Source: Bdellovibrionia bacterium (GTDB lineage: Bacteria; Bdellovibrionota; UBA1018). From it: a stretch of DNA of 11,993 nt. The position numbers and the translations under genes are program-made. The stretch lies in assembly GCA_045805065.1 (NCBI GenBank), contig JBJMMA010000158.1, forward strand, positions 1-11,993, given 5' to 3'. The notes below the pieces were generated by a model that was given only the letters and a program-made list of their open reading frames with translations, did not search any database and had not been told where the DNA came from. Of this stretch, positions 1,978-11,971 are shown piece by piece; the stretch's first letter is position 1, and each line of letters begins with the position of its first letter.

Positions 1978-2019
1978 AAACCCGGCGCTTCCCTTTCAGG
2001 GTTCGCCGGGTTTTCTTTT
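1978..2019 (+). terminator. Rho-independent terminator
   Basis: AAACCCGGCG (1978-1987) pairs with CGCCGGGTTT (2004-2013), with an inner CCCT/AGGG stem and a TTTTCTTTT tail. Starts 25 nt after the stop at 1952. Confidence 0.88.
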
Positions 2020-2026
2020 AGTAGTT

Positions 2027-2047
2027 GGTAAACATTATAGATTTACC
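2027..2047. promoter_or_regulatory. Inverted repeat upstream of the RND operon; candidate operator
   Basis: GGTAAA-CATTATAGA-TTTACC, AT-rich and intergenic, 23 nt upstream of a TTGACT (-35-like) hexamer at 2071-2076. Confidence 0.35.
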
Positions 2048-2131
2048 GCGATAACTCGGCCCTTCCATAATTGACTCATTGCGCCGCCCTTAGTAAGAGA
2101 AGCCCTTCAATCCACATTCCCGGGGGCCCTC

Positions 2132-3034
2132 ATGAGCAAAAGTAACCACGTATTGAGCCTTGCGCTCTTTCTCGCGCTGAGCGCGACTCTCGCTCCGTCT
2201 TTTGCTGAGACCGCACCTCCGGCTGCAACCGTTTTTGGGAAAAGCGTCACATCCGAGCTCTACAGTGACGAGCTGACCTACCCGGCCCGAGTCGTTCCTA
2301 AGATCAACAGCAACGTTCTGGCCGACACGGACGGCGTGGTCACCAAAATTCCCGCGGTCCTTGGCCAAAAGGTCAGTGCCAGGCAGACCCTGATCGTCAT
2401 CACTCACACAGATCCTGTTTATCAATTTGCGCCAATGAAGGTGGCCTCGCCCATCTCCGGAGTTGTCAGCGCCATCAACGTGGCTGAAGGCTCGCAAGTG
2501 AATAAGGGAGAAAAACTGGCGTCCGTCACGGATCCGAGAAAACTGAGAGTCGTGATTGAAGTACCGGCAGAAGATCTCGATTCGCTCAAGAAAGGCATTC
2601 CGGCTGAGTTCCGTATCTCAGGCCGCCCTGATCCCATTGCTGTGAAACTTCAAGGCATGAGTCCCTTCGTGGATCCATCCACCGGAACCGCAACCTGCGA
2701 GTTCGATGTGGATCCCGTTCACGCCTCTCTTTCTCCTGGAATCGTAGGGCGCATCATCATGAGCGTCCACCAGCGCAAGGGCATCCGCATCCCTGAGTAC
2801 GCCATCCTTTATCGGGGTCAGTCGCCTTACGCCCGAATCTACGAGAACGGAAAAGTCCGCTACTCCACTCTCAAGCTGGGAAAAAAGCAGGAAGGCTTCG
2901 TTGAGATCCTCTCCGGCCTCAAAGACAAGGACATGGTCATTGAGCGGGCCAGCCGATTTGTGGCTGATGGAGAATCAGTTCAGCTGGATCCAGGCAGTCA
3001 AGCAAATCAAGGCGCTCAGGGTCATTCATCATGA
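2132..3034 (+). CDS. RND efflux periplasmic adaptor (membrane fusion protein), hairpin-less type (300 aa)
   Basis: Signal peptide ending SFA|ET; two lipoyl half-motifs (DGVVTKIPAVLGQKV and SPISGVVSAINVAEGSQV); beta-barrel motifs ISP-like MSPFVDPSTGT and PGIVGR; membrane-proximal IPEYAI...LG...VEILSGLKDKDMV. ATGA overlap with the permease. Confidence 0.93.
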   Translation: MSKSNHVLSLALFLALSATLAPSFAETAPPAATVFGKSVTSELYSDELTYPARVVPKINSNVLADTDGVVTKIPAVLGQKVSARQTLIVITHTDPVYQFAPMKVASPISGVVSAINVAEGSQVNKGEKLASVTDPRKLRVVIEVPAEDLDSLKKGIPAEFRISGRPDPIAVKLQGMSPFVDPSTGTATCEFDVDPVHASLSPGIVGRIIMSVHQRKGIRIPEYAILYRGQSPYARIYENGKVRYSTLKLGKKQEGFVEILSGLKDKDMVIERASRFVADGESVQLDPGSQANQGAQGHSS

Positions 3035-6000
3035 AGAGCCTTTATTCAGCACCGCTTCGCGTTTACCTGATGCTGGCGGGACTCGCGCTGGCTGGAATTT
3101 ATGCCGGAATGGGCCTGCCCGTCTCGCTCTTTCCGAACAGCTCCAAGCCCACGATCGACGTCGTGATGAATTACGGGAACTATACGCCTGAGGAGTTCCT
3201 CAATGCGTTCGGATCCTCGCTCGAAGAACAGCTCCGCGGCATCAACACCGAGCGCCTGCACGTCAATCAAGTTTCCGCCAACTATGAACGGAGCTCGGTA
3301 GACATCTCGGTTGAGTTCGACTGGGGCTGTCCTCCACTCGAAGCGCTTCGTGAAGTGAATAGCGTCGTCAATGCTTACTCTGCGCGTTTTCCGAGCGAAA
3401 TCCGAAACAGCATGAGAACCTGGTCGAACAGTGAGAATTCGGGTTTCATGGCCGTCAGCTTTTACAGCTCCAAGCGATCTCTCAACGACATTTACAATGC
3501 GCTCGACCCGATCTTGTCTCCCCTTCTTGCCAAAGTTCAGGACGCAGGCGATGCCGGTCTTTACAACCCGGCTCGAAAAGATGTTCAGATCGAGATCAAT
3601 CCTGAGCGAATGGCATCTCTTCAACTGCTTCCCCGCGATCTGAGCCGAGCCATTGAGGATGGGCTTTATGGCGCAAACGGCGGCTCCTTTGCTTCCGTCG
3701 CCCAGACTTATTCCATCTCCATGCCTCGAGCTCTTCAAAACGTGGCAGATCTTGCAAAGCTTCCGGTGCGCTCCAATAGTGGAGCAGTCGTTCACCTGGG
3801 CGATATTGCGAAGATCGAGTATGCCATAAAGCCTGACGGAACACGAAGCTTCAAGACCAACGGAGCTCCCAGCATCATTCTATTCGCCGAACCCAAAGCC
3901 GGTGGAAATGTGAAACGAATGAGCGAGGACGTCCTGAGCGCTGTCGTGAAATCTCGCCCTAACATTCCAAGCGACATCGAATACAAGGTTCTGGTCGATC
4001 CTTCAGAGTTCATCCGCTCTGCCATCCAGAACGTCATGCGCGAAGTTCTGATGGGTGGATTGCTTGCAGTATGCATCCTGTTTCTCTTTGTCGGAAGCTT
4101 CCGCAATACCGTTACTGCTGCGATCGAGATCCCATTGAGCATGGTGCTCGCTTTTATTCCCATGAAACTCTCGGGAATGAACCTCAACCTTATCTCATTG
4201 GGTGGACTCGCCCTCTCAGCCGGCATGAATGTCGATGCTTCGGTCGTCGTGATGGAAAACATCTTCCGTCATTTCGAGGAAGAAAAAGGCCCCCTCACCT
4301 CATCCAGAAAGCTTGAGATCCTGATCCGCTCCGTGAAGGAAGTGCGATTCTCAGTCATCGCATCAACCATCGCGTCTCTCGTTGTTTTTCTTCCACTGGC
4401 GTTCACATCGCAGCTCAGTAACGCCATCCTGGGAGACCTGGCCAAGACCGTTGTCTTCTCTCACGGCTTTTCAGCGTTTGTCGCGCTGATCCTGGTGCCG
4501 ACCGTTCGGTTGCAACTGATGTCAGGTAAAAAGACCGAGCTTCACGTCAAATCGCCGATCGAACCCTGGATCGTCCGTTTGGAAAATCTTTACGAGAAGT
4601 ACCTGGATCTTTTCATCCGCAGCGCGCGCTATCAACGAATTACTTATATCAGCCTTGCGACGTCACTGGTCCTGCTTCTTGCTCTGGCTCTTCCCAGACT
4701 CCCGAAAGAAATCGTCGGAATGCCTGACACCGACTGGATCATGGTTCGGTTGAACGCCAAGGGCAATACGATGTTCCGTCAGATGGATGCTCAAACCGAA
4801 GAGTTTGAAGCGAAACTTCTCGCTGATTTTGGCGAGCACATTCAATACACCTTCACGCAGGTCAACCAGGCCAATCGCGCAAGCGTCATGGCACGCCTCA
4901 AAGACAAAAGCGAAATGCGCCAGATCTGGAAGGCGATGGAAGCAAAATACGTCAACACGCCTTTCATGCGCTTTGGTGTGGACTCGTGGAACCCGGCAGA
5001 ACTTCCGATTCCCAACCCTCCTGCGCTCAAGGTTTCCGTGCAAGGTGGCACTCTTGAGGATCGCTCGGCTGCGGCCGAAGAACTCTCCAACATGTTCGAA
5101 GAGCACCAAGTCGTGCCACGAGTCTGGACCAACCCCGATGTCTCTCACTCAGACACGATTGTGCTGAAGCCCAATCTTGACCGATGGGCGGCGCTCGATC
5201 CCTCCAAGCTTGGCCTTACGCCGAGCGATCTGGCCGATATGGTGCGAGTGGCAACCTCTGGCAAGCCTGCATCCATTGACCTGCCGATCGATGGCCGAAC
5301 CGCATCGGTCAATCTCAGGTTCCCGCAGGAGTACGTAAAAACTCCTGAGGATATCGGCTCGCTTCCTGTCGGTGCGGGCGGAAAGCTCATGCCCCTGCGC
5401 GGACTGGTGCAGGTCTCTGTTGAAAGCGCAAAGCCTCCGATCTACCGCGAAAACGGTCGCGAGATGTTTCAGATCATCGGACGCAATAATTCCAGCAGTG
5501 ACGGAAAAAGTTCCGATAAGTCATATCTCAAGCAGGCCGAGAAACTTGCTGATGAATGGAAAACCCGCGACGCTCAGAAAAATGGCGATCACCCCTCCGT
5601 GGTCTTCGAAGAAGCTGACAAGGATCTCAATGATGCCTTGAAGCAGCTCAGCGTGGCCGTGGGACTCTCGATTCTTCTGATTTTCATCACCCTCGTTGTT
5701 CAATTTGGCAGCTTCATGAACGCGCTGCTAGTGATGGTTGCAATCCCGCTGGGAATGATCGGGGTCATCGCCTCGCTATTCGTCTTCAGAAGCACGCTCT
5801 CGCTCAACTCCGCCTTGGGCGTGATTCTCTTGAACGGAATCTCGGTTGCCAACAGCATCATTCTGGTCGATTTCCAAAAGAAACTCTTTGATCAGGGCAA
5901 AACTCCTCTTGAAGCCGCTCTCGAAGCAGGAAGAAAACGCCTGCGCCCGATTTTGATCACTTCGCTGACAACCATTCTGGCCATGCTGCCGGTCGCGCTG

Positions 6001-6246
6001 GGTTTAGGTGAAGGGGGCAGAATTCTACAGCCTCTGGGGATTGCAGTGGCAGGAGGCCTTTGGGTTTCGATGGGATTCACCCTCTTTGTCGTCCCTGCCT
6101 TGCAGGTTGCCTATCTCAAGCGACAAAAACGCCCTGATTTAAACCCAACTGGAATTCCTGTTGAGACCCTTGAGGCCTTTGACAACGATGACTTTGACAC
6201 TCAAGGCATGCCCTCTCACCATCCCGCTCCGGAGATGATTCAATGA
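3031..6246 (+). CDS. RND efflux permease, AcrB/AcrD/AcrF-like superfamily (1071 aa)
   Basis: Length and topology fit RND. Motifs LPVSLFPN, IPLS, LNLISLGGLALSAGMNVDASVVVMENI, VFLPL, RLRPILITSLTTILAMLP and QPLGIAVAGGL. Confidence 0.97.
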   Translation: MKSLYSAPLRVYLMLAGLALAGIYAGMGLPVSLFPNSSKPTIDVVMNYGNYTPEEFLNAFGSSLEEQLRGINTERLHVNQVSANYERSSVDISVEFDWGCPPLEALREVNSVVNAYSARFPSEIRNSMRTWSNSENSGFMAVSFYSSKRSLNDIYNALDPILSPLLAKVQDAGDAGLYNPARKDVQIEINPERMASLQLLPRDLSRAIEDGLYGANGGSFASVAQTYSISMPRALQNVADLAKLPVRSNSGAVVHLGDIAKIEYAIKPDGTRSFKTNGAPSIILFAEPKAGGNVKRMSEDVLSAVVKSRPNIPSDIEYKVLVDPSEFIRSAIQNVMREVLMGGLLAVCILFLFVGSFRNTVTAAIEIPLSMVLAFIPMKLSGMNLNLISLGGLALSAGMNVDASVVVMENIFRHFEEEKGPLTSSRKLEILIRSVKEVRFSVIASTIASLVVFLPLAFTSQLSNAILGDLAKTVVFSHGFSAFVALILVPTVRLQLMSGKKTELHVKSPIEPWIVRLENLYEKYLDLFIRSARYQRITYISLATSLVLLLALALPRLPKEIVGMPDTDWIMVRLNAKGNTMFRQMDAQTEEFEAKLLADFGEHIQYTFTQVNQANRASVMARLKDKSEMRQIWKAMEAKYVNTPFMRFGVDSWNPAELPIPNPPALKVSVQGGTLEDRSAAAEELSNMFEEHQVVPRVWTNPDVSHSDTIVLKPNLDRWAALDPSKLGLTPSDLADMVRVATSGKPASIDLPIDGRTASVNLRFPQEYVKTPEDIGSLPVGAGGKLMPLRGLVQVSVESAKPPIYRENGREMFQIIGRNNSSSDGKSSDKSYLKQAEKLADEWKTRDAQKNGDHPSVVFEEADKDLNDALKQLSVAVGLSILLIFITLVVQFGSFMNALLVMVAIPLGMIGVIASLFVFRSTLSLNSALGVILLNGISVANSIILVDFQKKLFDQGKTPLEAALEAGRKRLRPILITSLTTILAMLPVALGLGEGGRILQPLGIAVAGGLWVSMGFTLFVVPALQVAYLKRQKRPDLNPTGIPVETLEAFDNDDFDTQGMPSHHPAPEMIQ

Positions 6247-7523
6247 GAGCACTGCATCTGATCCTGATCCCTTTGTCTCTGATGACCTCTGCTTTGGCAG
6301 GGGCCGGGGAAACGCCATTAGGGTTTGACCAGGCCCTGAATCAGATCATGGCTCGAAGCACTCAGATCGGGGCGCAGCGTGAGGCATACGAATCCCTTGA
6401 ATCGGCAAATCTGCCGACGCGGCTTTTTTATCTTCCCACCATTTCAACCAATGCAAAGGTCTCTTACAACGGAGATCCCAGCAGCGTCAGGCTCCGAACC
6501 GCACGCCATGCGGAAGTGCAAGCCGATCTGAACATCTTTCGCTTTGGCGCTGACTATACGCAGCTTCGGGCCGCGCAAAACGATGAGGCTCAGCAGAAAG
6601 AAGTCCTCTCGAGCACGATTCTTCAAACCGAAGATCAGGCGGTCCAGGCATTGATCGAAGCGATCAGAACGGGCTTCGAACTCGACGTTCTGCGCCGTCA
6701 GGTCAAAGTTCGAGAAGAAGCGCTGCAGATCGCACAAAAGCGCTATGAGCGTGGCTTTCTTGCCGAACAGGAAGTACGAAAAGTCCTGATCGATGTCTCC
6801 AATGCTCAATCGCGTCTGGCTCAAGGTGAGCTATCATCCATTGAAGCAAATTCCACTTTGCGCAGTCTGCTTGGGCCCGACCCTATCGCGATTCAATGGC
6901 CATGGAAGACGGCTCTGACATCAGCAAAAGCCGATGAGCTTACCAAACGATTCAAGTTCGATTTGAAAGACAGGCCTGACTGGGCGGCTGCACAGGCTCG
7001 GTTGACCGCTAATGAGTATCGACGAACACATAATTACTTGCTCATGCTTCCAAGCCTCGACGCGAGCATCACCTACGGCTACTACAAATATGACTTCGAT
7101 GCGGGGGCTCCTAACGGCCCTGCATGGCAGGGAGCCTTCGTGGTGACGCTTCCGATTTTTGATCGTCTGGTTAATTTGTCGAATGGGCGTGCACAAGCTC
7201 ACCTGGTCCGACAAGCTGCGTTTCAGCAAACTGAAGTCGAACGCAACGCTGATGCCCAAGTAAGTGCGGCAAAACAAAGCCTCCTACGTGCCGTGACTTC
7301 CGCTGCCGAAAGAGACACCACACTCTCAAAGTCCATGAACCTTTATCAGGACAGCTTGAGAAGATTTCAGAACGGCCGAGCCGATACCAATGAAATGCTT
7401 CTGGATCAAACGCGGGTACTAGATACGGAGCTTCTGGCAATTTCCGGTTGGTCTGAAGCGCATCTCGCGCTCGCCCGATTTTGCCATAGCCTTGGCAAAC
7501 GCGTCGCCGAGTGCCTGCGCTGA
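6243..7523 (+). CDS. TolC-family outer membrane efflux protein (426 aa)
   Basis: Signal peptide; two outer-membrane-factor repeats (YLPTIS...LNIFRFG...RYERG and RPD...LPSLDAS...LPIFD...RFQNG). ATGA overlap with the permease stop. Confidence 0.93.
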   Translation: MRALHLILIPLSLMTSALAGAGETPLGFDQALNQIMARSTQIGAQREAYESLESANLPTRLFYLPTISTNAKVSYNGDPSSVRLRTARHAEVQADLNIFRFGADYTQLRAAQNDEAQQKEVLSSTILQTEDQAVQALIEAIRTGFELDVLRRQVKVREEALQIAQKRYERGFLAEQEVRKVLIDVSNAQSRLAQGELSSIEANSTLRSLLGPDPIAIQWPWKTALTSAKADELTKRFKFDLKDRPDWAAAQARLTANEYRRTHNYLLMLPSLDASITYGYYKYDFDAGAPNGPAWQGAFVVTLPIFDRLVNLSNGRAQAHLVRQAAFQQTEVERNADAQVSAAKQSLLRAVTSAAERDTTLSKSMNLYQDSLRRFQNGRADTNEMLLDQTRVLDTELLAISGWSEAHLALARFCHSLGKRVAECLR

Positions 7524-7538
7524 CATTTCCTTGGTTCG

Positions 7539-8441
7539 TCACGCTGCGCCACGACGAATGGCGCACTCAACATCCGTCTCAGTCGGTGCTTTTGTTCGAA
7601 GATTTCCAAGCATCTGCGAGGCTCTCTCAATATTCTCACGCGCTCTTTTGACCAGAGACTGAATCCGCTCTGGAACAGGAGGCGATCTTCCAATCAGCTC
7701 GACCAGCAGAGAGAGTGCTGTCAAAGGCGTACGAATATCATGGATCTGCTTGCGGATGTATTCGTCCCGCATGGCATTCAAGACGCGCATCTTCTGCACC
7801 TCATCTACAGCTCGGCGATGAAGTGTCGCGTTGTGAATGGCCATCGCCGCAAGTGTTGCCAACTCCTGAGCCATCTGAAGATCAGCATCGTCATAGTGTC
7901 TGCCCGATCTCTCCGTCGTGAAGAACGTCAGGCCACCAATGATCTCCTTCTTTTCCCGTATCATTGGGACCGCGATTGCGGACACGACCCTCATTTCCCT
8001 TAAGATGCTGATCAACTCCGGGCTCCATCCCGCAGCTTCCAGAATGTTGAGATATTCCAAGCAGTGATCTGCCACTAAAATCGACTCTCCTGACTTCAAG
8101 ACATGAGAGATTCCAACTTTCGCATCTTTAGGAGGCGGTGAAGGCTTCATTCGATGCAATCGCTCATCAAAATCCGGGTCAGCATGATGATGAGCAACTC
8201 GCTCAAAGCTGCCGCTGGGAAGCAAACGATTGATTGTGGTCCAGTCTGCGATTCTGGGAACAACCAAAAGGCTGAGACATTTGAAAGTCTCCTCGTACTG
8301 AATCGAAGACGAAAGAACGCGAGCTGCTTCACTCAAAAAAGCGACCCGCTCGGACAAAGTCGACAAGGATTCCGCTTTTCTGGTCAGCTCGTCCACGCTT
8401 ACTGCAGCGGTTTGCTCCGGTGTCTTCGATTCACTCGCCAT
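7539..8441 (-). CDS. GAF domain plus HisKA (DHp) protein lacking the HATPase_c domain (300 aa)
   Basis: FLSEAARVLSSSIQYEET...VVPRIADW, SAIAVPM and DLQMAQELATLAAMAIHNATL (GAF); H-box HDIRTPLT at His234. Stops 66 aa after the His with no N/G1/F/G2 boxes. Confidence 0.88.
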   Translation of the reverse strand: MASESKTPEQTAAVSVDELTRKAESLSTLSERVAFLSEAARVLSSSIQYEETFKCLSLLVVPRIADWTTINRLLPSGSFERVAHHHADPDFDERLHRMKPSPPPKDAKVGISHVLKSGESILVADHCLEYLNILEAAGWSPELISILREMRVVSAIAVPMIREKKEIIGGLTFFTTERSGRHYDDADLQMAQELATLAAMAIHNATLHRRAVDEVQKMRVLNAMRDEYIRKQIHDIRTPLTALSLLVELIGRSPPVPERIQSLVKRARENIERASQMLGNLRTKAPTETDVECAIRRGAA

Positions 8442-8791: not shown

Positions 8792-9784
8792 ATGAACAAG
8801 AATTTTCAGAAGCGCCAAATTGCCTTCGCATTGATCACATCTTTAACCGCCATCCTGGCCTCGGGCTGTACGCAGGGATACATCACGGCTCGTGACAGCG
8901 GCATATCCACCTACGCAGCCCAGCTTCAAGCCCCGATCTCAACGGGCTTGGCAGTATTCCCTGCCGATGCTGATGACTGCGCCTTTGGCGGATCCATCGT
9001 CAAAACCTACAGTGACTTGAACGCGAGCGGAACTCTCGATACAGACGAGCCGATTCTCTCGATCACAAAAGTTTGTAACGGCGCTACGGGTGCAACCGGA
9101 GCTACTGGTGCGACGGGCGCAACGGGCGCAACGGGTTCTCAGGGCCTTGGCTCAGGAATCATCGTGACCCAAGCGCCCGCAGGGACGTGCCCTGCCGGTG
9201 GAAGCATCCTGAAAACTTTCGTAGACGCCAATAACAATGGAAAACTCGACTCCGGTGAAACGGTCACGTCGATCAACACGATTTGTAACGGCACCAACGG
9301 TACGGATGGCGCAAGCGCTCACCTCACCGTTGCCCCTGCAACGACAGCTCAGTGTCCAAACGGAGGCGTCGTCTACACAAGCTCAGTCGGAAACGAACCA
9401 GGACAGCAAACCGTGGTTTGTAACGGTCAAGATGGAAAGAATGCAAATCTTGCGATGGGACCCGTGGGACCTAACCCGCCAAACAAGTCCTACTCAGTCT
9501 GCCGTCACGACTATCTCTACATCCCGAATCTGAACGACAGCAGCCGTGGCTGGCTCACCTTCCGCCACCAGGCGAACGGTCAGAAGGACCAAGGCATCGG
9601 TTCCACTGGATTTAACATCTGGAACGTGGATATCGCAGACTTCCTTCTGGTCTCTGAAGAAGGCGCGGGTACTAAAGTCACTTACTGCAGCCTGCACTGG
9701 GATCCATATGGCAAGGTCCTGACCTACAAGGTCGTCGATAACACCGACAACCTGGCAGGACTCACCGGAACGATCAAGTTCTAA
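8792..9784 (+). CDS. Putative lipoprotein with three Cys-bounded repeats (DUF7151-like) and collagen-like linkers (330 aa)
   Basis: SD AGGAG; signal peptide ending LASG|C26. Repeats C63-AFGG...DLNASGTLD...VC95NG, C133-PAGG...DANNNGKLD...IC165NG and C188-PNGG...VC210NG. Gly-X-Y linkers follow each. The family name is from recall and needs an HMM check. Confidence 0.85.
   Translation: MNKNFQKRQIAFALITSLTAILASGCTQGYITARDSGISTYAAQLQAPISTGLAVFPADADDCAFGGSIVKTYSDLNASGTLDTDEPILSITKVCNGATGATGATGATGATGATGSQGLGSGIIVTQAPAGTCPAGGSILKTFVDANNNGKLDSGETVTSINTICNGTNGTDGASAHLTVAPATTAQCPNGGVVYTSSVGNEPGQQTVVCNGQDGKNANLAMGPVGPNPPNKSYSVCRHDYLYIPNLNDSSRGWLTFRHQANGQKDQGIGSTGFNIWNVDIADFLLVSEEGAGTKVTYCSLHWDPYGKVLTYKVVDNTDNLAGLTGTIKF
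9080..9145 (+). repeat. Coding 9-bp tandem repeat encoding collagen-like (Gly-Ala-Thr)6-Gly-Ser-Gln-Gly
   Basis: GGCGCTACG GGTGCAACC GGAGCTACT GGTGCGACG GGCGCAACG GGCGCAACG GGTTCTCAG GGC. Confidence 0.92.
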
Positions 9785-9880: not shown

Positions 9881-11971
9881 TTAAGGCATATCCGGAGCAA
9901 CTTTCATGTGCTGCAGGACAGCTTCCGCAATCTCCTTAAAAACCGGCGTAGCGTGAGAGCTGCCATGGGCGCCATCCTTGCTTTCAGGATCGCGGATCCC
10001 CACATAAACCTCAACCCGAGGGTTTTTCACAGGCGCAAAGCCGATGAAGTTAGCGTAATCTGGATCGCCATCAAACGGCATGAACCGAGGATAGTGAGAA
10101 GTCGCCGTCTTTCCGGCCGTTGTGTAGAGCTTGCTTTCTCCGTGAGGGCTTGCAGTTCCGGTCAAAACAACCTGTTGAAGGATCATTTTGGTTTTCTCGG
10201 CAGCCTCTGGTGAAAGAACCCGGCGGATGACTTGAGAATCGGAATCCGATGCGTTGGCAGGCAAAGGCTTCATCAACTTTCCGCCGTTGGCAATTGCGCC
10301 AAACGCCTGGACCATCTCGATAGGGCTGATATCGAGTCCCGCCCCTTCTGAAACGTAGGGGACAAGCCTCGGATGCTCAGGATCATCTTTTGAAGGCAAA
10401 CGACCACTGCGAGCAGCCGGGAAATTTTTCGCGGTGCCTTCAGGTCCGAAGCCAAAATTTTCAAGCATCGTCATCAGACCTTGGGCCCCAATCCTCTCAC
10501 CCAGCTTGATCGAACAAATATCACTGGAGAGCGCAATCGTCTGAGTCGTGGTCAGATGATCCCAGCCTGCCTTGTGCCAATCATGATAGACGCGATCTCC
10601 ATAGCGGTACTTGCCATTTTCACATGAGATCTTTTCATCGGGAGTCGTAAGGCCTCGATTGAGTGCTTCTGCGACAACGAGCGACTTCAACACCGATGCA
10701 GGTTCGAACAATTCACCTAAAGCCCAGTATCCTGAAAGTTTCTGGGTAGTATCGACATTGGCTACCGCTAAAATCTTTCCTGTCATCGGATCAGCAACGA
10801 TTGCAAATCCTGCCTTGGCTTTCTCCTTCGCCAGGAACCTGGAAAGAACTGAATCTGCAATTTTTTGAATTTCGGGATCAACAATTACTTTTCCTTCGTT
10901 AACGGAATTTTCATTCGTTTGCCGAATGGATTGCTCCGCGCCGAGAGCAATCGCTATTGTCATCAAACCAGTAACGGTACCTAATACTACGCCTGCCCAT
11001 CGATTGGCCTTGGACGCCACCTGAGAGGCATCATGACTCGTAAACATCTCTATTCTCCTTCGTAAGAACGATTTGAAATACGCAGGGTTCTTGGAATCCG
11101 CGGCCATGCACGTGGTACCGACGTACATTTGGCGGGATCCAAGCGCTGTCTCTGCCACCCTTACAAGACAGCTTCCGTACTCATACGAGGAGATCCTCTT
11201 TCGGCCGATCAAAGCCTCATCGCATGAGAATTCTTGCAATTCATTGAGCTCCTTTTTCCAGAAGTAGACGAACGGATTTGGAAAGAAGAAGCAGATCATC
11301 AGTTCCATCAAAATCGCCCAGAGCGTATCACCCTGGCGATGATGCTGAAGCTCGTGTTGAAGCGCGATGCGGAAGTCGTTGGATTTGCCAAGCATCTGGC
11401 TTGGCAATGCGACCCAACAGAGTCGCCCGAAACGAGCCGAAAACGGAATCGTGATCTCCTCGGAGACTCCGACGCAAACTTTTCCAACGAATCGAATGAC
11501 CGTGACACTTTGAAGGACTGTCTGGAGCTTGCGCAAATGAAACAGAAACCTTCCTAACATCAGAATCACGCCGGCCAACAAGGCGATCAAGGCGGCGAAA
11601 CTGAGCTGTTCCGAAGAAACCGGCCACTGATGTGAGAGCTGAGCTAAGTCTGAAGAAACTCGGGCAGTTGGAGGTCTTGCCTGATTTTTTCCTCCTGCTG
11701 GCATCTGAGGCACTCTGTGCCCCATTTCCGATGCCGGCTCAAAGAAACCCCATTGCACTCTGGGCAGCTGATTTTTGGGGACTTCATGGAACACAAAAGG
11801 GCTTAGACAAGAAAGGATGAGCAAAGCTTTCGCGATTTGAATGAGCTGGGAATGGCTCAAACTCACTCTCAATTTCCGTGTTAAATTCTTGAGCCCCAGA
11901 AAGGTCCCAAGACTGGCAAGCAGAAGGAGATTTGCGATGGAGTAAATCTCCAGAAGAGCAAAGGCCTTCAT
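9881..11971 (-). CDS. BlaR1/MecR1-like M56 metallopeptidase fused to an FtsI/SpoVD-type penicillin-binding transpeptidase domain (696 aa)
   Basis: N-terminal TM helices; H206-ELQH zinc motif followed by GD, FFPNP, QEFSCDE, YGSCL and LRRRI; a further TM helix; then DPMTGKILA, EPAS426VLK, S482SD, FGFG, ANGGKLMKP, AGK621TAT and FIGFAP. SD GAGAGGA at 11985-11979. Confidence 0.93.
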   Translation of the reverse strand: MKAFALLEIYSIANLLLLASLGTFLGLKNLTRKLRVSLSHSQLIQIAKALLILSCLSPFVFHEVPKNQLPRVQWGFFEPASEMGHRVPQMPAGGKNQARPPTARVSSDLAQLSHQWPVSSEQLSFAALIALLAGVILMLGRFLFHLRKLQTVLQSVTVIRFVGKVCVGVSEEITIPFSARFGRLCWVALPSQMLGKSNDFRIALQHELQHHRQGDTLWAILMELMICFFFPNPFVYFWKKELNELQEFSCDEALIGRKRISSYEYGSCLVRVAETALGSRQMYVGTTCMAADSKNPAYFKSFLRRRIEMFTSHDASQVASKANRWAGVVLGTVTGLMTIAIALGAEQSIRQTNENSVNEGKVIVDPEIQKIADSVLSRFLAKEKAKAGFAIVADPMTGKILAVANVDTTQKLSGYWALGELFEPASVLKSLVVAEALNRGLTTPDEKISCENGKYRYGDRVYHDWHKAGWDHLTTTQTIALSSDICSIKLGERIGAQGLMTMLENFGFGPEGTAKNFPAARSGRLPSKDDPEHPRLVPYVSEGAGLDISPIEMVQAFGAIANGGKLMKPLPANASDSDSQVIRRVLSPEAAEKTKMILQQVVLTGTASPHGESKLYTTAGKTATSHYPRFMPFDGDPDYANFIGFAPVKNPRVEVYVGIRDPESKDGAHGSSHATPVFKEIAEAVLQHMKVAPDMP

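Follow-up and report, generated by a model that had tools for sequence, protein, structure and literature searches.

A conserved family of RND periplasmic adaptors without the alpha-helical hairpin in Bdellovibrionota, encoded with its own permease and TolC-like channel

We studied a stretch of 11,993 nucleotides from a Bdellovibrionia bacterium (contig JBJMMA010000158.1 of assembly GCA_045805065.1), called the window below. Its forward strand carries three consecutive genes for the components of a tripartite pump of the RND class: a periplasmic adaptor, a permease and an outer-membrane factor (Table 1). The reading frames are tightly packed, with an ATGA overlap at 3031-3034 joining the adaptor stop to the permease start, and a second one at 6243-6246 joining the permease stop to the channel start; permease and channel are thus separate genes in the window. 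Upstream of the adaptor gene, the region 1955-2022 folds into a stem-loop with a predicted energy of -24.5 kcal/mol (z -3.55), and none of 200 shuffled sequences was equally stable; a scan with a terminator consensus did not list this structure. The promoter candidate that follows reads TTTACC-18-CATAAT and matches the consensus at 9 of 12 positions, one such site being found where 0.2 would be expected. On the other side, the negative strand encodes a GAF-HisKA protein of 300 aa (7539-8441), whose gene converges on the channel gene and ends 16 nt from it. Because of the stem-loop and promoter candidate on one side and this converging gene on the other, the adaptor, permease and channel genes were taken as a unit of their own.

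Table 1 Features of the pump operon and its upstream border in the window
Feature	Position	Strand	Basis or remark
Secreted-protein gene, unrelated to the pump, 222 aa	1284-1952	+	Upstream of the stem-loop
Terminator-like stem-loop with U-run	1978-2019	+	RNA fold; 5' boundary of the pump operon
Sigma-70-like promoter candidate, 5' of the adaptor gene	2042-2071	+	Consensus match only
RND periplasmic adaptor (MFP), hairpin-less, 300 aa	2132-3034	+	TIGR01730, AlphaFold2, Foldseek, family profile
Adaptor signal peptide, residues 1-25, SPase I-type features, no lipobox Cys	2132-2206	+	Sequence
Adaptor N-terminal lipoyl (barrel-sandwich) half, residues about 57-90	2300-2401	+	Model strands; BesA alignment
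Adaptor 13-residue loop THTDPVYQFAPMK in place of the alpha-hairpin, residues 91-103	2402-2440	+	Family alignment
Adaptor C-terminal lipoyl half, residues 104-135	2441-2536	+	Pfam
RND permease, AcrB-type, 1071 aa	3031-6246	+	PF00873, 559.6 bits
TolC-like outer-membrane factor, 426 aa, with signal peptide	6243-7523	+	PF02321, two stretches

The other genes of the window are of mixed character. The secreted protein upstream of the stem-loop has a signal peptide and several Cys residues, and matched no Pfam or NCBIfam family. No ATPase domain was detected in the GAF-HisKA protein, which could be a histidine kinase in truncated or atypical form. Further downstream, a 696-aa BlaR1-like protein (9881-11971, negative strand), whose reading frame is open to the contig end, combines a Peptidase_M56 domain with a penicillin-binding transpeptidase domain. 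Two more reading frames, at 8792-9784 on the positive strand and at 175-858 on the negative strand, contain domains of unknown function, DUF7151 (in two stretches) and DUF4383, respectively.

The usual RND adaptor has a roughly 70-residue alpha-hairpin between the two halves of its lipoyl domain, a helical arm that extends to the channel in the outer membrane. A preliminary description of this DNA, made from the sequence alone, proposed that here the lipoyl half-motifs are joined by a linker of about 13 aa (2402-2440) and that the helical hairpin is missing. Several lines of evidence agree with both statements. Residues 91-103 of the adaptor map exactly to that interval. The protein passes the NCBIfam model for RND adaptors (TIGR01730, RND_mfp) with 116.8 bits against a cut-off of 94.9, in two separate stretches, the better of which aligns residues 102-284 to positions 135-320 of the 322-position profile; since the match is split and its main stretch starts at position 135, the hairpin region of the profile is left unmatched. 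Pfam domains in the adaptor are Biotin_lipoyl_2 (residues 103-132), HlyD_D23 (from residue 102) and HlyD_3. HlyD_D23 covers it only from profile position 109 onward; in a canonical, hairpin-bearing RND adaptor of 458 aa encoded in the same genome, it spans positions 22-214. When E. coli AcrA was added to the alignment of 27 family members, and positions at which 90% or more of the 27 rows have gaps were counted, residues 100-128 and 131-170 of the AcrA precursor (69 aa) had no counterpart in the family. The AlphaFold2 model of the adaptor, built on the 27 homologues, reached a mean pLDDT of 87.2 and is all-beta except for the signal peptide, one 6-residue helix and one 4-residue helix; its strands at residues 59-63, 68-72 and 86-92 form the N-terminal lipoyl half. 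Outside the signal peptide the model contains no helix longer than 6 residues, and thus no hairpin elsewhere in the chain. The ORF at 2132-3034 is therefore confirmed as an RND periplasmic adaptor that naturally lacks the alpha-helical coiled-coil hairpin, an element typical of RND adaptors but not universal among them, as it is also absent from BesA (see below).

Sequence searches showed that this architecture belongs to a family. A word-indexed search retrieved 78 homologues of 244-332 aa with 37-90% identity, below which the score dropped sharply to ordinary adaptors of 321-433 aa. An exhaustive profile search gave 252 cluster representatives at E<=1e-30, and nearly all among the 150 matches listed were collinear with the profile in a single stretch. 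Of 224 family rows aligned with hmmalign, 220 cover the linker region; the linker window has identical length in 214 of these, none of the 220 has an insertion in it, and no orthologue with a full hairpin occurs among them. The loop itself has the consensus [HN]TDP[VI][YF]x[YF]AP, with the D present in 206 and the P in 211 of 221 rows, a count that includes six non-family rows. Mean identity over loop residues 92-101 was 0.88 in the 27-sequence alignment, compared with 0.63 for the mature protein, and makes the loop the second most conserved 10-mer, exceeded only by the SPFVDPxTGT motif of the beta-barrel (0.92). The short linker is thus a conserved trait of a family found mainly in the Bdellovibrionota, bacteria of the predatory type, and not a deletion artefact. 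Explanations by a deletion in one strain, a pseudogene or faulty assembly have practically no chance, given that the same linker was found in 214 of 220 rows from many independent assemblies; the confident model and the intact operon oppose it further.

The named relatives belong to Bdellovibrionota, Oligoflexia, Bacteriovoracaceae, Halobacteriovorax and Pseudobdellovibrionaceae, and the source of the DNA had rightly been taken for a non-spirochaete. In a sample of 401 genomes of the phylum to which the window belongs, the adaptor family was present in 75 genomes, nearly always in single copy, and in 53 of the 204 genera. The only further genome sampled from the genus of the window, 95% complete, had no match to the family. 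This distribution indicates that the pump is an accessory, patchily distributed trait.

The adaptor N-terminus contains one Lys, a 15-residue hydrophobic run and the sequence SFA before ET, and was read at the outset as an SPase I-like signal (SFA|ET) with no lipobox Cys. The absence of a lipobox was confirmed, the sole Cys of the protein being C189. The N-termini in the family alignment follow the same signal-peptide pattern as that of the window. From these features, the adaptor probably becomes a soluble protein of the periplasm once SPase I has removed the signal peptide. A regular expression for lipobox-like sequences matched 11 of the 92 complete N-termini of the family, about 7 of them convincingly, suggesting that a minority of the family are lipoproteins. 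RND adaptors without a lipid anchor are not unusual, CusB and ZneB being soluble proteins. In these two adaptors, a Met cluster at the N-terminus binds metal; residues 26-60 of the mature adaptor studied here contain no Met, and hence no such cluster.

Structural comparison with BesA and AcrA, which the preliminary description had recommended, placed the adaptor closest to BesA. The top eight Foldseek matches in the PDB were the eight BesA chains (entries 4KKU, 4KKT and 4KKS), with E-values from 1e-18 to 3e-17, 18-20% identity and alignments over 261-268 columns. They were followed by AcrA, MexA, TMexC, CusB and ZneB, the E-value for AcrA and MexA being about 1e-15; to these two, as to BesA, the structural match extends over the full length. 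The best PDB match of the family profile was also BesA (8.7e-15, 57.9 bits), with profile positions 33-283 aligned to BesA residues 27-280 without a gap across the linker. All other solved adaptors aligned to the profile only from the second lipoyl half onward; ZneB reached 1.4e-14 (57.2 bits over half the length) and CusB 6e-13. BesA likewise consists of membrane-proximal, beta-barrel and lipoyl domains, with a short loop and no alpha-hairpin, and its gene is likewise accompanied by genes for an RND permease and a TolC-like channel. The two systems differ in several respects. The gene order is adaptor-permease-channel here and besCAB in Borrelia burgdorferi, a member of a different phylum. 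According to PMC3807786 and PMC2279261, BesA is lipidated at Cys26, and the 9 residues of its loop are flexible and include two positive charges, whereas the adaptor of the window has no Cys before residue 189, and the Bdellovibrionota loop keeps a fixed length, is strongly conserved and has an aromatic/acidic character. Compared with the more familiar adaptors, the window protein shares the three non-helical domains with AcrA and MexA, which serve HAE-1 pumps, but has neither their hairpin nor their lipid anchor; CusB and ZneB keep a helical domain that it lacks.

BesA was the exception to the hairpin rule named at the outset, but it is not the only one: Greene et al. 2013 (PMC3807786) noted similar hairpin-less sequences in other spirochaetes and, rarely, in proteobacteria. 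The sequences without a hairpin-coding region named there, in the legend of a supplementary figure, are from Borrelia, Treponema, Spirochaeta and Sphaerochaeta, with one from Legionella pneumophila (Q5X3G2) and none from Bdellovibrionota, and the accessible portion of a 2021 Chemical Reviews article contains no mention of Bdellovibrio. A literature search, with most subscription journals outside its coverage, returned no paper on the Bdellovibrionota hairpin-less family, and for the Borrelia pump nothing relevant from 2016 onward. What was already established, in 2008 and 2013 (Bunikis 2008, Greene 2013), is the BesA-type hairpin-less architecture itself; new here are its occurrence in another phylum, the fixed and conserved loop, the usual absence of a lipid anchor, the dedicated channel and the recurrent permease-channel fusions in relatives (see below).

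Short adaptors may be more widespread still. Look-alikes of about 270-310 aa in the Atlas came from Spirochaetota, Pseudomonadota, Omnitrophota and Bacteroidota; treated as leads only, they suggest that short adaptors also exist in the last three of these groups. The genome of the window itself encodes a second short adaptor of 273 aa, on the negative strand (L007:1486-2307, G000:C157). It has an N-terminal membrane helix, matches HlyD_D23 only from profile position 108, and lies directly upstream of a gene for a 416-aa membrane permease (L007:239-1489, negative strand). It could represent a further adaptor without a hairpin, perhaps one that serves another class of transporter.

The gene neighbourhood of the adaptor was well conserved. 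Of 44 family loci, 40 have an RND gene as the next gene downstream, and the contigs of the other four end at the adaptor; a channel gene comes next in 27 loci, and the loci with no channel end before or at the permease end. The three-gene operon, whose conservation had been left to be surveyed, thus appears at every related locus that is long enough. In the 401-genome sample, the channel family was found in 71 genomes, of which 70 also carry the adaptor family, so that 70 of the 76 genomes with either family have both. This co-occurrence, the strict gene order and the overlapping or fused reading frames all speak against a pump that does not span the periplasm, in which the adaptor-permease pair would move its substrate into the periplasm or act on the envelope while the channel works independently. 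We rate this arrangement as the least probable of the ways considered here in which the components could work.

The same survey bears on the proposal that the function of the hairpin is supplied in trans, either from a second adaptor, as happens where a pump has two adaptors, or from some other periplasmic factor. For BesA, the existence of such a factor was left open by Greene et al. 2013 (PMC3807786), and the genome studied here holds other adaptors with hairpins. On the other hand, across the 45 loci (the window and 44 related ones), no additional gene beside the operon was conserved in more than three and no candidate hairpin donor was found near it, none of the 44 related loci has, next to its pump, a counterpart of the secreted protein encoded upstream of the window operon, and the adaptor family is single-copy, its occurrence tracking only that of its own channel family. 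Supply in trans is consequently improbable, if slightly less so than a pump that does not bridge the two membranes.

The permease is collinear with solved HAE-1 pumps, which also gave its best whole-length matches, and shows no indel longer than 7 aa relative to AcrB. It was compared with AcrB and with six other RND permeases of the same genome, including the hairpins of the docking subdomains. Conservation in the docking subdomains was 0.53-0.55, against 0.54-0.59 in the rest of the periplasmic part, and was therefore not raised, and neither was that of their hairpins; nor did these subdomains contain any extension marking a special permease-channel interface. A DD pair is absent from TM4 of the permease, which like CusA and ZneA has one Asp there (NVDAS...MEN); the sole DD of the protein lies in the C-terminal tail. 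Residues 330-500 (4018-4530) matched ZneA and CusA with E-values of about 1e-17 to 1e-16, compared with 1e-11 for AcrB.

The absence of a marked interface weighs against docking of the channel on the permease only, an arrangement in which the adaptor loop would serve adaptor-adaptor or adaptor-permease packing. Its location is a second argument: in the alignment with AcrA, the loop lies at the distal lipoyl tip, where the hairpin emerges, and in canonical pumps the distal lipoyl end faces the channel. The repeated permease-channel fusions described below do fit a direct relation between these two proteins, and permease-only docking, while unlikely, is the strongest of the three competing explanations.

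The channel showed no compensating change in size. Its AlphaFold2 model (mean pLDDT 90.4) has the TolC fold with two 67-residue helices, and Foldseek matched the model to TolC, OprJ and OprM with TM scores of about 0.7-0.8. A single-sequence phmmer search of the PDB gave no match at E<=0.001, whereas a profile search of the PDB matched outer-membrane factors. Since the channel is of standard TolC length, the missing hairpin is not compensated by a longer channel. We also mapped the family onto E. coli TolC (26 channels, at about 14% identity in the alignment). The tip glycines G147 and G365 are both kept; Y362 is replaced by an invariant Phe and R367 by A, V, T or I, D153 corresponds to Glu, D371 to D or E, and D374 to L, V or I. 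The lock residues were those described in PMC8277102, where OprM, VceC and CusC are reported to differ from the TolC lock and yet to work with hairpin-bearing adaptors. Replacement of lock residues is thus weak evidence, because channels paired with hairpin adaptors also differ from TolC; from the sequences, it is possible that the channel has locks other than those of the TolC type. BesC, too, is reported in PMC2279261 and PMC4446572 to be without the TolC network. One channel gene of the family, at locus L038 (about 6043-7344), contains one internal stop and may be a pseudogene or contain a sequencing error; it was excluded from the channel alignment for this reason.

In a part of the relatives, permease and channel are fused. 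Ten of the 27 loci showing both genes have them in one open frame of 1459-1493 codons (L009:6792-11192, L021:6849-11300, and loci L010, L016, L019, L022, L027, L039, L049 and L050). In the 401-genome sample, 16 of 72 channel matches lie in open frames of at least 1400 codons, and four more in frames of 940-1356 codons that were perhaps cut by contig ends; the counts of 10/27 and 16-20/72 overlap in genomes and are not independent. A fused protein of 1466 aa, present as a single protein in its NCBI record, matched ACR_tran (Pfam) over residues 9-1015, followed by two OEP repeats that reach residue 1455. At the junction, the order is the last permease helix, a short basic stretch, a signal-peptide-like hydrophobic segment with an Ala-rich end, and the mature channel. 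The fused state needs five changes on the permease tree, of which at least three are forced by well-supported branches. It is shared by three near-identical assemblies and by a second pair, which argues against random frameshift error. The linker is too short to tether the channel to the inner membrane, and so we infer that the internal signal peptide is cleaved. No paper on natural RND permease-channel fusions was retrieved by the literature search, within the same limits of coverage.

We propose that the three genes encode a dedicated RND pump with a BesA-like adaptor that assembles in a short form, the channel resting on a crown of permease and lipoyl domains with the conserved loop facing the channel; to this reading we assign a probability of roughly 0.6. 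A non-canonical route of assembly, which the preliminary description regarded as obligatory, is a reasonable supposition. The three domains that the adaptor has kept would hold the permease, as proposed for BesA (PMC3807786), and together the permease and the ring of lipoyl domains would form the crown on which the periplasmic tip of the channel directly rests. The pump would then be shorter than a canonical one by about one hairpin length (47 Å for AcrA, according to PMC3807786). The [HN]TDP[VI][YF]x[YF]AP loop would face the channel and do the work of the hairpin tip; its position, which in AcrA is the point of origin of the hairpin, makes it the obvious candidate for channel contact. An obligate one-to-one pairing of permease and channel would fit the fusions in relatives. 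The BesA papers argue by the same logic of direct contact (PMC3807786; PMC2279261, PMC4446572).

Several considerations weigh against this proposal of a short pump. With a canonical hairpin adaptor encoded in the same genome, pumps of both lengths would share one periplasm, and the short form is thus not forced by a general property of the envelope. The permease docking region, judged by its sequence, would also have been expected to show extra conservation or an extension, and has neither. The replaced lock residues of the channel, which count for little, and the minority of lipoproteins in the family belong on the same side. A complex prediction for the channel (residues 22-426) and the adaptor (residues 26-290) gave a score of 0.00 and no verdict, neither for nor against contact.

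A more far-reaching version of the short-pump reading, which we hold tentatively and consider clearly less probable than the proposal itself, although still ahead of its rivals, is that these pumps form a distinct 'short' RND class. Six invariant lipoyl-tip loops would stand in for the coiled-coil hairpins and would dock and open a dedicated TolC-like channel; in about one quarter of the lineages, permease and channel would be made as a polyprotein whose internal signal peptide would act as a 13th TM segment and be cleaved to set the channel free, so enforcing a one-to-one stoichiometry.

How tripartite pumping can proceed without adaptor hairpins has been a question since BesA was described, and for the Borrelia system Greene et al. 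2013 reported that BesB could not be expressed and BesC could not be crystallised (PMC3807786). The non-spirochaete family described here is large and diverse, and gives structural studies a wide choice of other proteins. Mutagenesis has a clear target in the conserved loop on the channel side and in the dedicated channel, and the natural fusions are tethered permease-channel constructs that need no engineering. Should these fusions be cut at the internal signal peptide, one gene would give rise to both an inner-membrane and an outer-membrane protein; to our knowledge, no route for making the two from one gene in this way has been described before. The hairpin-less family of Bdellovibrionota could thus make the assembly of short pumps testable.
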